Assembly: GCA_035464095.1 (NCBI GenBank)
Contig: DATHSO010000080.1
Location: forward strand, 4,024 to 68,023
DNA: 64,000 bases
Direction of reading: 5' to 3'
From: Candidatus Methylomirabilota bacterium
GTDB lineage: Bacteria > Acidobacteriota > Thermoanaerobaculia > Thermoanaerobaculales > Sulfomarinibacteraceae
Below are positions 14,161 through 48,279 of the stretch, piece after piece. The translations under genes were made by a program, and so were the position numbers. A model generated the notes under the pieces. That model saw only the letters and a program-made list of their open reading frames with translations, was not told the origin of the DNA and made no database searches. The number at the start of each line of letters is the position of its first letter. The stretch's first letter is position 1.

Positions 14161-14244
14161 GGCCCGGATGCGTCCCGGTGTGATGCCGGACCTTCTCGTA
14201 GCACGCGGCGCCACCGTCCCCAACTTGACGAACTCACCCGGAGC

Positions 14245-14332
14245 GTGCCAGGTACGGCGACTTGACAAACTCGCCACGAACCCTGTGAGTGCAGCATCAC
14301 TGCCGAGTTTGTCAAGTCGCGGTACCTGGCAC
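14245..14332. repeat. 88-bp palindromic element (GTGCCAGGTACGGCGACTTGACAAACT arms)
   Basis: 28-nt arms (27/28 complementary) around a 32-nt loop. The left arm is identical to that of the copy at 35276. A partial extra arm (caacttgacgaactc) lies at 14221-14235. Confidence 0.8.
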
Positions 14333-14341
14333 CGTGTGCTC

Positions 14342-31120: not shown

Positions 31121-33246
<2,126 letters not shown>

Positions 33247-35251: not shown

Positions 35252-35396
35252 CCACTTGACAAACTCTTCCACAGCGTGCCAGGTACGGCGACTTGACAAA
35301 CTGAGCATGGACGCAGCGGCAACAGGCGGCGCGGGGAGTTTGTCAAGTTGCCGTACCTGGCACCGTCAGGGGGGAGTTCGTCAAGTCGCGGTGGTG
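35252..35396. repeat. 88-bp palindromic element (35276-35363) nested between partial arms of a second copy
   Basis: Inner arms gtgccaggtacggcgacttgacaaact / agtttgtcaagttgccgtacctggcac (26/27) around a 34-nt loop. Outer half-arms ccacttgacaaactc (35252-66) and gagttcgtcaagtcgcggtgg (35374-94). Confidence 0.8.
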
Positions 35397-41836: not shown

Positions 41837-43192
41837 TCAGTCGAGCGCGACGCGTTCGATAGGGCCGCGCAGGCGGGCGCTGACCCGGCCGAGGAGGATG
41901 AAGCCCACCGCGCCGAGGCCGACCACGAGCCCCCACCACAGGCCCTGGGGGCCGAGGCCGAAGGTGAAGCCGAGCAGCAGGCTGGCCGGCAGGCCGATCA
42001 GCCAGAAGCCGACCAGGTTGATCAGCAACGGCGCGCGGGTGTCCCCGGCGCCGCGGAGCACGCCCGCCGACACCACCTGCAGCCCGTCGAAGACCTGGAA
42101 GAAGCCGGCGATCGGGATGAGTGTTGCCGCCAGAAAGCGAACCTCGTCGACCGAGGTGTAGGCCCGGGCGAGGCCGCCCGGCAGGCCGATGAAGAGCACG
42201 GCGGTCAGGGCCATGAAGCCCGCCCCCAGCAGCAGGCCGGAGGACGCTGCGCGGCGCGCTCCGTCGCTGTTGCCGGAGCCGATGGCGTTGCCGACCCGCA
42301 CCGCGGTCGCCTGGGCGACCCCGAGGGGCACCATGAAGGTCAGCGAAGCCAGGTTGATGGCGACCTGGTGGGCGGCCATGACCGTGGTTCCCATGCCGCC
42401 CATGAGCAGGGCGATCACCGTGAAGGCGACGATCTCGAGCTGCAGCTGGAAGCCGATGGGGACGCCGAGTCTCAGGGTGCGCAGCAGAGGCTGCAACCGA
42501 AAGGCCTCGCGGTCGAAGCGCAGCAGCGGCCACAGGTCCCAGCGGTCGACCACCAGCAGGATGACGAACAGCAGGGTGCGGGCGATGGTCGTTGCCCAGG
42601 CCGAGCCCAGGGGGCCGAGCTGGGGGATCGGACCGGCGCCGAACACGAGCACCCAGTCGGCCACGAGGTTGAAGACGTTGACGGCGATGACGGTTGCGAC
42701 GATCGGGCGCAGCCGGCCCATGGCCTGGAGGGTGAGGCGCAGCACGACCCAGCAGTAGAAGGGCAGCAGGCCGGGGATCGAGATGTGGGCATAGGCCGCC
42801 GCCAGGGGCACGATCTCGGGCGGCTGGCCGAGCAGGGACAGGATCGGCCCGATCGGCACCAGAATCACCGCGCTGGGGATCATGAGCGCGGCGGAGATCG
42901 CGAAGCCGCGCTGCACCGAACGGCGGAAGGAGGTTTGGTCGCGCGCCCCAAGCGCCTGGTTGAGGAGCGGGTCGAGGCCGAGCAGGACGCCGACCCCGAA
43001 CGACGACACCGTGATGACCGCGATGTGGCCCAGGGCCACCGCCGCCAGGGCCTGGGACGACAGCCGGCCCACCACCATGGTGTCGACGACCCCGAAGAGC
43101 ATCATCCCGACCTGCACGATCACCACCGGCACCGCGAGCCGGATCATGGCCTCCAGGTCGGTTCGTTGCGGTTTCTCGAAGGGTCGGGTCAC
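41837..43192 (-). CDS. MATE-family efflux transporter
   Basis: 12-helix hydrophobic profile. N-terminal MIRLAVPVVIVQVGMMLFGVVDTMVVGRL, typical of NorM/DinF. Start GTG at 43192 (GGAG upstream) or ATG at 43147. Confidence 0.8.
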   Translation of the reverse strand: MTRPFEKPQRTDLEAMIRLAVPVVIVQVGMMLFGVVDTMVVGRLSSQALAAVALGHIAVITVSSFGVGVLLGLDPLLNQALGARDQTSFRRSVQRGFAISAALMIPSAVILVPIGPILSLLGQPPEIVPLAAAYAHISIPGLLPFYCWVVLRLTLQAMGRLRPIVATVIAVNVFNLVADWVLVFGAGPIPQLGPLGSAWATTIARTLLFVILLVVDRWDLWPLLRFDREAFRLQPLLRTLRLGVPIGFQLQLEIVAFTVIALLMGGMGTTVMAAHQVAINLASLTFMVPLGVAQATAVRVGNAIGSGNSDGARRAASSGLLLGAGFMALTAVLFIGLPGGLARAYTSVDEVRFLAATLIPIAGFFQVFDGLQVVSAGVLRGAGDTRAPLLINLVGFWLIGLPASLLLGFTFGLGPQGLWWGLVVGLGAVGFILLGRVSARLRGPIERVALD

Positions 43193-43232
43193 GGTCGCTC
43201 CGGCCGGGGAGTCTAGCAGGTGCTGGGGGCGA

Positions 43233-43885
43233 GGCCGTGCGTCCCGGGGCACCGGCCTTCTGGGCCGCCTTTGGCGTCCCAGCGTCGATGAGCCGGCGCG
43301 GTCGCGCGGAGGAGACGGGGAAAGCTGCGACCGCGCCGTCTCATCGAGCGGCGGCCTGCCTCGTTGCCGGAAAGGGAGCTTCCCGAGACGCGATGGGAGC
43401 GGTGCCAGGCACCCTTTCGTCGGACGAAAGGAGAGCCAGGCACCGGGCCCGCGCTGTCTCGAGGCGAAGGATGCCGGCACAATGGCGTACCCGGCACGTC
43501 CCGGTGGAGGCGCCCCACCCGCGCCTCCCGGAGGCGCGCTGATCGCTGCCGCTGACCCTGCCGCTGCCGCTGCCGCTGGGCGCGTGGCCGTGCGTCCCGG
43601 AGCACCGGCCTTCTGGGCCGCCTTTGGCGTCCCAGCGTCGATGAGCCGGCGCGGTCGCGCGAAGGTGGCGGGGAGGGCTGCGACCGCGCCGTCGTGGCGA
43701 GCGGCGGCCTCCCCCGTTGCGGGAGCGGATGCTCCGGAGCGCGCTTCCCGTGGATTGCCAGGTGCGGCATTGTGCGGAGCGCGCTCTGCTCGGGAGGGTG
43801 GAGCCGGCACAATGCCGAACCTGGCACGTCCCGGGGGAGGCGCACTGCCCGCGCGTTCCGGAGGCGCGGTTCGCTGCCGCTGACA
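43233..43885. repeat. two tandem ~350-bp composite repeat units rich in hairpins
   Basis: Units start at 43233 and 43586. The first ~77 nt have one mismatch. Each contains ggcgcggtcgc...gcgaccgcgcc (11-bp stem), a GCCAGGT...ACCTGGCAC-type palindrome (43756-43827 in unit 2), and ends with (GCTGCC)n hexamers. Confidence 0.75.
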
Positions 43886-43931
43886 TCGGACACGGACGCG
43901 GAAGTGGGCGAAGACGAGGTAGAATCACGGG

Positions 43932-44738
43932 ATGTTCCTCTACCGGGAAGACGACGCCGGCAGGACCCTGGCGATCTCGCAGGTGTCGCACGCTTGGTTC
44001 GCCTGGCAGCTCGCCGAGCACTGGGGCAACCGCCGCTTCAACCGCCCGCTGCCGCGGGCCGAGGTGCTCGCCGCGGTGATGCTCCACGACTCGGGCTGGA
44101 CCGAGTACGACGCAGCCCCCGGGATCGACGACCGCGGCCGGCCCCGCACCTTCGACCGGATGCCGGTGGAGGACCATCTCGAGATCTGGCGGAGGAGCGT
44201 CGACCGGGCGGCGATGCACAGCCGCTACGCGGCGTTCCTGGTCGCCGGGCACTTCGCCGAGATGGCCGAGGTCAAGAGCGCCGACCTGCTCGAGCGTGGG
44301 CAGACCGCGTCGGCCCGCCTCGTCGAGAGCTTCCGTGCCGAGATGGAACGCCGCACCTCGGCCTGGCGGGAGTCACTGGCCGCCGACGCCCGCTACCAGG
44401 GCTGTCTGGAGGGAACGCGCCTGCGGTCCAACGCCGATCTGCTGTCCCTGGCCGACAAGATCTCGGTCTACCTGTGCGCCTGCCTGGGCTCGGACTTCGA
44501 GGTCGTGGCGCCCACCAGCGACGGCGGCATCGAGGCGGTCCGGGTCACCGCCCTCGACCCGACGCACTGGCGCCTCGACCCCTGGCCCATGGAGGGCGAC
44601 CGGGTACGTCTGCAGTGCGAGGGACGGATGCTCCCCTCGACCTCCTTCGGGTCCGCCGACGAGCTCCGGGCGGTGCTGCGTCGCGCCCCGGTGGAGCGCC
44701 TCGGCTTCACGCTCCTTAGGGCCTCGGCGGTCGGTTGA
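43932..44738 (+). CDS. hypothetical protein, DUF3891-like (possible HD-related)
   Basis: 268 aa. N-terminal ISQVSHAWFAWQLAEHWGN....AVMLHDSGW pattern. Family name is from memory and uncertain. Confidence 0.45.
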   Translation: MFLYREDDAGRTLAISQVSHAWFAWQLAEHWGNRRFNRPLPRAEVLAAVMLHDSGWTEYDAAPGIDDRGRPRTFDRMPVEDHLEIWRRSVDRAAMHSRYAAFLVAGHFAEMAEVKSADLLERGQTASARLVESFRAEMERRTSAWRESLAADARYQGCLEGTRLRSNADLLSLADKISVYLCACLGSDFEVVAPTSDGGIEAVRVTALDPTHWRLDPWPMEGDRVRLQCEGRMLPSTSFGSADELRAVLRRAPVERLGFTLLRASAVG

Positions 44739-44780
44739 CAATCACCCGCCGAGGGCTACAATACGCTCTTGCCACCGTGC

Positions 44781-44855
44781 TCCGCAGTAGCTCAATGGTA
44801 GAGCGGGTGGCTGTTAACCACTAGGTTGGGGGTTCAAATCCCTCCTGCGGAGCCA
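44781..44855 (+). tRNA. tRNA-Asn (anticodon GUU), CCA encoded
   Basis: Cloverleaf folded by hand. Acceptor UCCGCAG/CUGCGGA, D stem GCUC/GAGC, anticodon stem GGUGG/CCACU with loop CUGUUAA, T arm GGGGG-UUCAAAU-CCCUC, discriminator G, then CCA. Confidence 0.9.
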
Positions 44856-44860
44856 AGCTG

Positions 44861-44908
44861 ATTCCCACGACGAGGCCCGCGCGACCGCGCGGGCCTCGTC
44901 GTGGGAAT
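44861..44908 (+). terminator. perfect 23-bp-stem hairpin immediately after tRNA-Asn
   Basis: attcccacgacgaggcccgcgcg-ac-cgcgcgggcctcgtcgtgggaat. No clear U-tract (followed by tgtgc). Confidence 0.45.
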
Positions 44909-44937
44909 TGTGCTACCGTCGCCCCCCGGAGGACCGC

Positions 44938-45879
44938 ATGCCTGACAGACAGCGAGCGTTGGTGACCGGTGGGGCGGGGTTTCTGGGCTCGCACCTGTGC
45001 GATCGGCTGCTCGCCGAGGGCTTCGAGGTGGTCTGCATGGACAACCTCATCACCGGCAGCCTCGCCAACATCGAGCACCTGTTCGGGCGGGACGGATTCA
45101 TCTTCGTCGACCACGACGTCACGAACTTCATCCACGTGCCGGGGCGGCTCGACGTCGTGCTGCACTTCGCGTCGCCGGCGTCGCCCATCGACTACCTCAA
45201 GCTCCCGATCCAGACCCTCAAGGTCGGCTCCCTGGGCACCCACAAGGCCCTCGGGCTGGCCAAGTCGAAGAACGCGCGCTTCCTCCTCGCCTCGACCTCG
45301 GAGTGCTACGGCGACCCCCTGGTCCACCCCCAGCCGGAGAGCTACTGGGGCAACGTCAACCCGGTGGGACCGCGGGGGGTCTACGACGAGGCCAAGCGCT
45401 TCGCCGAGGCCATCACCATGGCCTACCACCGCCACCACGGTCTCGACACCCGGATCGTCAGGATCTTCAACACCTACGGGCCCCGGATGCGGGCCGGCGA
45501 CGGCCGGGTGGTGCCGGCCTTCATCTGCCAGGCCCTGGCCGGCGAGCCGTTGACGGTCTTCGGCGACGGCTCCCAGACCCGCTCCTTCTGCTACGTGGAC
45601 GACCTCATCGAGGGCATCTGGCGGCTCCTCAACTCGGACCACGTGGAGCCGGTCAACATCGGCAACCCGTCGGAGATGACGGTCCTCCAGTTCGCCCACG
45701 AGATCATCCGGCTCACCGGCTCGGCCTCGGAGCTGGTCTTCCGCGACCTGCCGGTCAACGACCCCAAGGTCCGCCAGCCCGACATCTCGCTGGCCCGCAC
45801 CATCCTCGATTGGGAGCCCACGGTCGCCCTCGAGGACGGGCTCGCGACGACCATCGAGTTCTTCGCCGACCGGCAGTAG
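44938..45879 (+). CDS. UDP-glucuronate decarboxylase (UDP-xylose synthase), extended SDR
   Basis: [33 protein letters not shown] catalytic motif. ATG at 44938 behind GGAGGA. Confidence 0.85.
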
Positions 45880-45891
45880 CCGAAGGCCCGC

Positions 45892-48279
45892 CTACCGCTC
45901 CCTCAACGCCAGCTCCAGCACCTCGTCGGCGCGGGCGACGGCGTGGACCCTGAGTCGACGCCGGGATTTTGGCGGCAGCTCGTCGAGGTCACGCTCGTTG
46001 GCCGCCGGCAGGACGACGCGCTGGATCCCCGCGCGCAGCGCCGCGAGCACCTTCTCCTTGACGCCCCCCACCGGGAGCACGTCGCCGCGCAGGGTGAGCT
46101 CGCCGGTCATGGCCAGGTCGTAGCGGACCGGGCGCCCGGTGGCGACCGAGACGATGGCGGTGAGCAGGGTGATCCCGGCCGAGGGGCCGTCCTTCGGGAT
46201 CCCGCCCGCGGGGACGTGGAGGTGGAGCTCGTGGCCGTCGAACCAGCCGCCGGGGATGCCGAAGCGGTCGCCGTTGGCGCGCGCGAAGGTGACGGCGGCG
46301 CTGGCCGACTCTTTCATCACCTCGCCCAGGGACCCGGTGAGCCGGAGCTCGCCCCGGGTCGAGGCCGAGGCGGCGGCCTCGACCAGCAGGACGTCGCCGC
46401 CGGCGGCGGTGGTGGCGAGCCCGGTCGCGACCCCGACCCGGTCCTCGGCGAGGCGGTCGTCGGCGAGGTGGGGCCTCGGGCCCAGGAGCCGGGCCACCAC
46501 CGCCGGGGAGACGCGCCGCGGGTGCCGCCGGCCCTCGGCGACGAGCACCGCGACCTTGCGGCAGACGGCGCCGATCCTGCGCTCCAGGTTGCGAACCCCG
46601 GCCTCCCGGGTGTAGCCCGCAACCAGCTCGTGCAGGGCCTCCGGAGTGAAGCGCAGCCCGGTCCCGGCGACGCCGTTGTTTTCGAGCTGCCGCGGCACCA
46701 GGTGGCGGCGGCCGATCTCGACCTTCTCGTGCTCGCTGTAGCCCGGAAGCCGGATCACCTCCATGCGGTCGAGGAAAGCCGGCTGGATGGTGTCGGTGAC
46801 GTTGGCGGTGGTGATGAACAGCACCCGGGACAGGTCGAGGTCGACCCCCAGGTAGTGGTCGCGGAAGGCGTGGTTCTGCTCCGGGTCGAGGACCTCGAGC
46901 AGGGCCGACGACGGGTCGCCCCGGAAGTCGGCGCCGACCTTGTCGACCTCGTCGAGCATGAACACCGGGTTGAGGCTCCCGGCCTGCTGCAGGCTCTGGA
47001 CGACCCGGCCCGGCATGGCGCCGACGTAGGTCCGTCGGTGGCCGCGGATCTCGGCCTCGTCCCGGACCCCGCCCAGCGAGGTGCGGACGAAGCTCCGGCC
47101 GAGGGCGCGGGCGATGGAGCGGCCGAGCGAGGTCTTGCCGACCCCCGGCGGGCCGACGAAACACAGGATCGGCCCCCGGCTTTCCGGCTGCAGCTTGCGC
47201 ACCGCCAGGAACTCGACGATCCGCTCCTTGACCCGTTCGAGGTCGTAGTGGTCCTCGTCTAGGATCCGCCGCGCCGCCGTGATGTCGAGGCTGTCCTCGG
47301 TGAGGGTGCGCCACGGCAGCGAGGTCATCCAGTCGAGCCAGGTCCGGACCACCGAGCTCTCGGCCGAGTCCGGGTGCATGGTGGCGAGCCGGCGAAGCTG
47401 GGTGTCGAGCTCGGCGCGGGCGGCCTCGGGAAGGCCGGCCCGGTCGGCGCGCTCGCGGTACTCCGCGACCTCGCGCTCCACGTCGTCGATCTCCCCTAGC
47501 TCGCTCTGGATGGTCTTGAGCTGCTGGCGAAGGATGTACTCGCGCTGGCCCCGGTCCATCTCGCCCCGCACCCTGGCCGAGATCCGCTCCTGGACCTCGA
47601 GCAGGGCGACCTCGCGCTCGAGCAGCTCGTGGACCCGCTCGAGCCGGGACTCCAGGGCGTCGAGCTCGAGCAGCTGCTGGGCGTCGTCCACCGCCAGGCC
47701 GAGGTTCGCCGCCACCAGGTCGGCGAGCCGGACCGGGTCGTCGAGGTCGGCGGCGATCACCATGATCTCCGGCGAGATGCCCTTGCCCATGGCCTGGACC
47801 TGGTCGAGCTTCTGGCGAATGGTCCGCATCGAGGCCTCGAGCTCGAGGGCTGGCAGGGCGGCTCGAGGCTCCGGAAGGAGCCGGATGCGGGCCGCGAAGC
47901 CGGGCTCGCTGGCGGTGAAGTAGTCGACCCGGGCCCTCGCCAGGCCCTGGACCAGGACCCGCTGGCTACCGTCGGGCAGCTTGACGACGCGCATCAGGGT
48001 GCCCACGCAGCCGGTGGTGTGGAGATCGTCGGGGCCGGGGCTGTCGATGCGACCGTCGCGCTGGGCGAGCAGCAGCACCATCCGGTCGGCGGCGAGGGCC
48101 TCCTCGAGGGCGGCCGCGGAGAGGTCCCGCGCCACCGACAGGGGCAGGATCGAGTACGGGAAGAGGACGGCGTCGCGCAGGGGCAGCACCGGGAGCTCGT
48201 CGGCGATGTGCACGACGTCGCCGACCTCGATCCCGCCCTCGCCCGACCACCCGTGGCCGCCGTCGCGATCGGCGGTCAT
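45892..48279 (-). CDS. lon: ATP-dependent Lon protease
   Basis: ORF trimmed to the ATG at 48279. [17 protein letters not shown]-domain. GPPGVGKTS Walker A. Catalytic DGPSAG. Overlaps the nrdR stop (ATGA). Confidence 0.9.

Follow-up and report, generated by a model that had tools for sequence, protein, structure and literature searches.

A hairpin-rich pair of repeat units separates a MATE gene from a DUF3891 gene in a Thermoanaerobaculales (Acidobacteriota) MAG, and the question that it raises is whether this pair is a locus in its own right, such as a structured RNA gene, or one site of a more widely dispersed repeat. The genome comprises 4.42 Mb in 217 contigs with 70.9% GC. The pair occupies positions 43222-43905 of the window, by which we mean the whole stretch of 64,000 nucleotides from contig C80 that was analysed. 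Its modules and its neighbours are listed here in window coordinates.

41837-43201, minus strand: MATE efflux transporter gene (PF01554, E = 2.8e-59), its start codon lying about 20 bp to the left of the repeat.
43222-43371, plus strand: unit 1 module A (150 nt), with a 21-bp-stem hairpin (43285-43305/43327-43347); 60-62 copies in the genome.
43372-43469, plus strand: unit 1 module B (98 nt), with the hairpin 43401-43444, GGTGCCAGGCACC...GAGCCAGGCACC; 54 copies.
43470-43540, plus strand: unit 1 module C (71 nt), with an arm at 43476-43497 that corresponds to a putative transposase terminal inverted repeat, followed by GGAGGCGC/GCGCCTCC hairpins; 65 copies.
43537-43578, plus strand: (GCTGCC/GCTGAC)n hexamer array joining the units (TRF period 6, 5.8 copies).
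43575-43724, plus strand: unit 2 module A, with an inner stem of 12 perfect pairs (43647-43658/43680-43691).
43725-43802, plus strand: unit 2 module B2 (78 nt), 5' arm of a long palindrome and putative left-type transposase end; 43 copies, two co-varying variants.
43803-43868, plus strand: unit 2 module C, consisting of the palindrome 3' arm 43807-43835 (putative right-type transposase end) and the C tail.
43869-43905, plus strand: hexamer tail and cap GCTGCCGCTGACATCGGACACGGACGCGG, read from the sequences; the same junction closes other copies.
43932-44738, plus strand: DUF3891 gene (PF13030, E = 4e-40), divergent from the MATE gene and beginning about 27 bp past the repeat.
44781-44855, plus strand: tRNA-Asn (GTT), Rfam match.

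Within the divergent MATE/DUF3891 intergenic region (43202-43931) the repeat pair leaves only these two margins of about 20 bp and 27 bp free. Since it fills nearly the whole gap, the promoters of both genes must fall within or at the edge of the repeat. Directly after the tRNA-Asn gene there is another GC-rich hairpin (44858-44911) with a near-perfect 24-bp stem, whose structural resemblance to Rfam microRNA precursor models is only a matter of chance.

The two units were delimited with a repeat finder, which returned a direct repeat of 159 nt (43222-43380 and 43575-43733, 88% identity, spacing 353) and a second one of 66 nt (43473-43538 and 43803-43868, 86% identity, spacing 330). Unit 1 is built as A-B-C and unit 2 as A-B2-C; they are alike in A (90%) and C (86%) only, and their central parts, B and B2, are non-homologous. 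Module A of both units contains a 21-nt loop closed by the perfect 12-bp stem CGGCGCGGTCGC/GCGACCGCGCCG, and in unit 1 this stem lengthens to 21 bp with 95% complementarity. The A hairpin of unit 2 is a hybrid of two arm variants, in which an ATGAG arm pairs with GTGGC. In the module B hairpin two GGTGCCAGGCACC-type motifs, putative transposase ends, surround a short self-complementary CTTTCGTC/GACGAAAG. The arms of the long palindrome of unit 2 (43747-43775 and 43807-43835) were also identified by the repeat finder, and for the second hexamer tract (43869-43884) it returned a direct-repeat copy at 43872-43888. An earlier sequence-only reading of this DNA had noted two units with a period of about 353 bp, a perfect stem with a divergent loop in each, hexamers at the end of each and a MATE gene and tRNA-Asn as neighbours, all of which agrees with our analysis; the gene between repeat and tRNA, described there as HD-like, is the DUF3891 gene. 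A palindrome bounded by GCCAGGT and ACCTGGCAC, which had been assigned to both units, is present in unit 2, but unit 1 has the module B hairpin instead.

Neither unit is peculiar to this locus. Each is a member of a dispersed modular family in which A is followed by B or B2, then by C and then by a (GCTGCC)n tail. The family counts about 50 copies in this genome (82 matches with unit 1 as query), full-length copies being 76-93% identical and spread over about 20 contigs. The module matches group into 83 clusters, all of them intergenic, and the order A, B and/or B2, C, hexamers is kept in every cluster of the genome and also in relatives. The clusters are of the types A-B2-C (about 35), A-B-C (about 8) and B-C (about 12), besides solo B modules, with hexamers linking the units of tandem arrays. 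Roughly one cluster in two lies at a contig end, which indicates that the family breaks the assembly of the MAG into its 217 contigs. Unit 1 has its closest relative on C114 (93% identity) and unit 2 on C20, C22 and C167 (91% identity). With the nearest kin of each unit on other contigs, the two are distinct family members that stand side by side, and local duplication as the origin of the pair is ruled out. The earlier proposal of a hotspot where palindromic elements had accumulated and duplicated is therefore correct as regards palindromic repeat elements, but not as regards duplication.

Long Arg/Pro/Gly-rich open reading frames cross the stretch on both strands, and one of them might in principle encode a protein. 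However, stop-free frames are expected by chance at 71% GC, and a Pfam search with five ORF translations spanning the region gave no match. An alignment of 23 full-length copies contains 100 single-base gaps and, except for one 33-nt block, no gap that is a multiple of 3; these indels break every frame. Variability by column modulo 3 is 0.078, 0.105 and 0.103, i.e. there is no 3-base periodicity. On the indels, the absent codon periodicity and the missing Pfam match we reject a coding role, whose probability we regard as negligible, in agreement with the sequence-only reading, in which no frame had looked coding.

A structured RNA deserves closer consideration, since the sequence-only reading had offered a non-coding RNA locus as its second proposal and since a family of small RNAs or UTR elements, kept for a function at the RNA level, would fit several properties of the repeat. 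Folded as single strands, both units beat 100 of 100 shuffles (z = -4.0 and -4.5). Across 81 distinct copies from six genomes, pairing in the A hairpin is kept by two-sided changes at 5-6 pairs (one pair is C-G in 40 copies, A-U in 31 and G-C in 2), one A pair is U-G on the plus strand in 65 of the 81, and the stem formed by B2 and C likewise exists in two co-varying variants. The core of module B is 87-98% identical between species, more than the neighbouring DUF3891 protein, whose orthologues share 66-74% amino-acid identity within the genus. However, the Rfam search that the sequence-only reading had proposed, carried out for window positions 42000-46500 at E <= 1, passed only tRNA-Asn, with a best score within the repeat of 21 bits against a threshold of 100. 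We found no sigma-70 promoter and no convincing terminator in the repeat, and its orientation relative to flanking genes, which were called by a purpose-made GC3-based caller, is random across the four classes (10, 10, 7 and 6). A cis-regulatory or terminator role was rejected on the same grounds. The long A stem has more A-C mismatches (about 36) than G-U mismatches (about 13), so that neither strand is favoured, and a strand-specific excess of G-U as a sign of RNA was discarded because it is inconsistent between helices. The B and B2-C stems correspond to both ends of transposase gene units, as described below, which accounts for the co-variation of the B2-C stem, whose variants descend from different inverted-repeat subtypes. 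Mismatches without strand preference, together with hybrid copies such as unit 2, fit palindromes at the DNA level better than selected RNA. Finally, the element is present or absent by species, also at an orthologous site, and an RNA family thus appears very unlikely to us; the proposed RNA locus is not borne out. An idea involving TnpB and omega-RNA was likewise rejected, as the genome has no PF07282 match.

What, then, are the palindromes? The sequence shows those of B and B2-C to be terminal inverted repeats of roughly 30 bp (tip GGTGCCNGG), joined head to head as dimers, from genes for RAYT-like Y1/HUH transposases of about 330 aa, of the kind known as 'TIRYT'; they are in effect miniature transposase gene units minus the gene. 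This genome has two clear matches to Y1_Tnp (PF01797), and its RAYT-like copies are located on C168/C53, C191 and C140. The Y1_Tnp search and the NF047646 search each give 3-15 such genes per genome in the five best-assembled relatives; a further relative, G007, has 16. The Y1 proteins are 327-342 aa long, match PF01797 with E = 1e-8 to 1e-10 and show a weak match to PF08299 (DnaA-type C-terminal HTH); against the profile NF047646 ('REP-associated tyrosine transposase'), for which the cut-off is 80 bits, they score 76-86 bits across the full profile. In relatives, the Y1 genes have GTGCCAGGCAC upstream and GTGCCTGGCAC downstream, in inverted orientation and within inverted repeats of about 30 bp. 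Flank alignment revealed terminal inverted repeats of 29-36 bp at 13 of the 17 loci examined, and also at the own gene of this genome, which is split across two contig ends (C168:1-555 and C53:14316-14885) and has GA(T/A)AGGTGCCAGGCACGCCATACCGCCTTA on both sides. The inverted repeats open with (A/T)AGGTGCCAGG(C/T)AC, followed by 15-20 subtype-specific nucleotides.

Several observations connect the composite with these ends. The core of module B is identical to the start of the Y1-gene inverted repeats, and the core motif occurs 160 times in the genome compared to 21 expected. The C arm of unit 1 at 43476-43497 (GTGCCGGGTACGCCATTGTGCC, minus strand) shares 20 of its 22 bases with the inverted repeat flanking a transposase gene in G006, an agreement reached by 0 of 100 shuffles. 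Unit 2 matches GGTGCCAGGTACGGC, the inverted-repeat tip of another Y1 subtype, at 43814-43828 with 2 mismatches. Each inverted-repeat subtype is represented 8-62 times in the genome. Genomes of the genus that are rich in Y1 genes also have the top motif counts (84-191, with 5-10 for a control pattern), a relation that is confounded by assembly quality and in which kin are not independent. A Y1 gene with the exact B2/C arm subtypes was not found in this fragmented genome, and it is in another species that the unit 1 C arm has its best match. Modules A, B and B2, the C tail and the hexamers were found at none of the 20 Y1 loci examined; an autonomous version (A, transposase gene, C) was sought at the same loci without success. 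Because A, the C tail and the hexamers have no counterpart at Y1 loci, the link to the transposase covers only part of the composite.

Simpler elements of this kind also occur in the window. Positions 14244-14333 and 35275-35364 are clean hairpin elements of about 90 bp that belong to a third subtype, with 28-nt inverted arms GTGCCAGGTACGGCGACTTGACAAACTC. These arms are nearly identical to the Y1-gene inverted repeat of a related species (G009; L117). The genome contains 62 copies of the arm and at least 21 dimers in which it is arranged head to head. A second RAYT-like gene, a full-length one at C191:47950-49040, has a lower GC content and a different 24-bp inverted repeat, GGTACCACGTATCACATTGTGATG, of which there are 3 in the genome. 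The C168/C53 transposase and that of L125 (G010) share 88-94% protein identity, while DUF3891 orthologues of the same two species share only about 70%; this similarity suggests either a recent horizontal transfer or an unusually strong constraint.

Among described systems, those termed 'TIRYT' or 'TIRtron', RAYT-like genes with long flanking inverted repeats, come closest (Di Nocera et al., 2013; PMC3733652). A clearly delimited acidobacterial group (Koribacter, Terriglobus, Acidobacterium) belongs to them, and in some species their inverted repeats form dispersed families of singles, dimers and clusters (PMC3733652). Most such genes fall into subclass 2.1, with DnaA-type or other HTH C-terminal domains, and the closest to those studied here is 2.1.2 (Quentin et al., 2018; PMC6006769). 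Shared features are a RAYT-like Y1 gene of about 330 aa, longer than RAYTs and with a C-terminal DnaA-type HTH, terminal inverted repeats of about 30 bp that flank the gene, and the dispersal of the same inverted repeats as singles, dimers and clusters. A difference is the tip GGTGCCNGG without GGGGWSAS, a motif that is present in most published TIRYT inverted repeats and is thus a majority feature, not a defining one (PMC3733652). Furthermore, there are many inverted-repeat subtypes here and, in the best-assembled relatives, 8-16 genes per genome, and the dimers are embedded in a fixed-order composite together with an unrelated hairpin module and hexamer arrays. Cutting and rejoining of the repeats by the transposase has been shown for no TIRYT (PMC3733652). 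Our literature search found no report of TIRYTs or TIRtrons for the host class Thermoanaerobaculia.

The REP/REPIN-RAYT systems of Escherichia coli and Pseudomonas share with the family the high-copy intergenic inverted doublets that form hairpins, and palindromes akin to the sequences on either side of a Y1/HUH transposase gene. However, the GTAG (or CGTC) tag at the hairpin foot is missing here, the family has longer arms (21-30 nt) and units of 300-350 bp instead of 40-150 bp, and the transposase is longer, multi-copy and not clearly vertically inherited, the own transposase being 94% identical at the protein level to a copy in another species. BIMEs likewise combine palindromic units with other conserved motifs in fixed order and form tandem clusters. 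Hairpin MITEs (Correia/NEMIS, ERIC, RUP, Nezha, Chunjie) are also non-autonomous, intergenic and multi-copy, with long hairpins, whereas the composite has direct terminal repeats and no demonstrable target duplication, and its presumed enzyme is a Y1 transposase and not a DDE enzyme.

The family is present across its genus. Pieces resembling A (about 78% identical) and B (87-98%) were found in 11 of 11 genomes of the genus and in 16 of 18 genomes searched in the family, and in 1 of 12 genomes of the sister family. In an exact-pattern scan of named genomes the B core occurred almost only in MAGs labelled Thermoanaerobaculales, Thermoanaerobaculia or Acidobacteriota; the exceptions are four records, namely two bins of Terriglobia (a class of the Acidobacteriota), one Bifidobacteriaceae bin and one 'uncultured bacterium' bin. 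Long-read MAGs of relatives have the same module order, A-B-B2-C included. In long-read MAGs of related species (L057, L064, L068 and L098) solo B modules follow one another at intervals of 1-2 kb with the same orientation, several of them directly after a 132-aa gene that is preceded by an 80-aa gene; gene lengths like these are typical of toxin-antitoxin pairs, and the arrangement resembles a cassette array.

The sequence-only reading had suggested comparing the same intergenic region in related genomes for differences in copy number. At the locus of the window itself this leads nowhere, as the MATE gene never neighbours DUF3891 in any relative and there is no syntenic counterpart, but copy number does vary at other sites. 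For five other loci the corresponding sites were compared in five relatives, whose DNA identity to this genome is no higher than about 75-80%.

C200 (about 32250-32790): in five relatives the two flanking genes are separated by 53-80 bp, and the block of about 530 bp (hexamers, A-B-C, hexamers) is absent.
C176: the orthologous gap holds no copy (G008) or one or two copies by species, in differing arrangements.
C60: the flanks are on separate contigs in all relatives.
C217: the flanks are on separate contigs in all relatives.
C48: the gap size differs in relatives.

The family is thus multi-copy, intergenic, non-coding and variable between species at orthologous sites, and this presence and absence indicates that copies come, go and change their arrangement over the time in which species separate.

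The hexamers raise the possibility that this turnover does without a transposase. The genome contains 398 (GCTGNN)n arrays of at least 4 units, 81 of which (about 20%) touch a module, and 80 of these 81 share the polarity of the module that they adjoin. Hexamers are located on both sides of nearly every copy and join the tandem units. Ectopic recombination or gene conversion between the roughly 400 arrays could copy whatever lies between them and unequal crossing-over could generate tandem pairs, in which case the dimers would be old passengers. The composite is bordered by direct repeats, GCGTCCCGG and GGCGCK, and lacks terminal inverted repeats of its own; the C203 copy is fused exactly at the common GCGTCCCGG, and at two of the five loci compared the flanks are on different contigs in all relatives, all of which would agree with such a process. 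However, the inserted block on C200 carried its own hexamer arrays, and the clean empty site of the relatives has none to recombine with, so that the arrays themselves must arrive somehow. Recombination also leaves unaccounted for why alternative dimers, or both, occupy the same slot between A and C. As the whole explanation, transposase-free spread therefore seems unlikely to us.

The hexamers also lead to a second gene family. The (GCTGNN)n arrays are capped by (GGGTCC)n on one side and by ACATCGG(GCACGG)n on the other. Inside hexamer-repeat foldbacks we found 37 genes for PF05635 proteins ('23S rRNA IVS protein', an Avd-like four-helix bundle). They fall into about three subfamilies, each gene lying between (GCTGNN)n and (NNCAGC)n arrays (C205:2161-3863, C116, C182, C128:10334-12043 and others). 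On C128 two divergent PF05635 copies form a large palindrome with C-B modules as its outer arms. The hexamer junctions of the composite are identical to arms of these cassettes: GCTGACATCGG(GCACGG)n equals an IVS cassette arm, and the cap junction GCTGCCGCTGACATCGGACACGGACGCGG, as read from the sequences, is in reverse complement the right arm of the IVS-protein gene cassettes. In one subfamily, 4 of 6 genes have the composite 40-60 bp downstream, always in convergent orientation, and the same arrangement exists in the relative L069. One could hence imagine that the element travels with the Avd-like cassettes, either as their functional partner or as a passenger. However, two genes of this very subfamily lack the composite, adjacency overall amounts to 5 of the 37 genes and about 5 of the 83 element clusters, and the copy in the window has no such gene nearby. 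The IVS-protein gene as an obligatory partner is rejected on these counts, and joint movement with the cassettes seems most improbable. A wider idea, that the composite, the (GCTGNN)n, (GGGTCC)n and (GGGCAC)n arrays and the 37 Avd-like genes are parts of one undescribed mobile system, in which arrays would be laid down at insertion and Y1 transposases would cooperate with four-helix-bundle proteins, is a long shot.

We consider it probable that the region consists of adjacent A-B-C and A-B2-C members of a dispersed non-coding mosaic family, similar to BIMEs and REPINs and built on dimers of transposase ends, which is predicted to be moved in trans by Y1 transposases. Folded single-stranded DNA would be the form in which these enzymes recognise the ends, and the dimers would be copied or moved by them in trans. 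The whole composite of A, dimer, C tail and hexamers may then spread and form tandem arrays, probably with the help of recombination, both among (GCTGNN)n arrays and among the GCGTCCCGG direct repeats that border it. The pair would merely occupy the divergent MATE/DUF3891 gap, and any influence on the two genes would be a side effect. The stretch looks like ordinary selfish repeat DNA and not like a locus-specific RNA gene.

For annotation, this removes a candidate RNA locus and explains the fragmentation of the MAG into 217 contigs. It also extends the little-studied TIRYT/TIRtron idea to the Thermoanaerobaculia. The hexamer arrays with their shared polarity and the repeated association with Avd-like genes deserve further work. 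With many transposase subtypes, each with matching dimer families, these bacteria are a good natural system for asking if TIRYTs mobilise inverted repeats.
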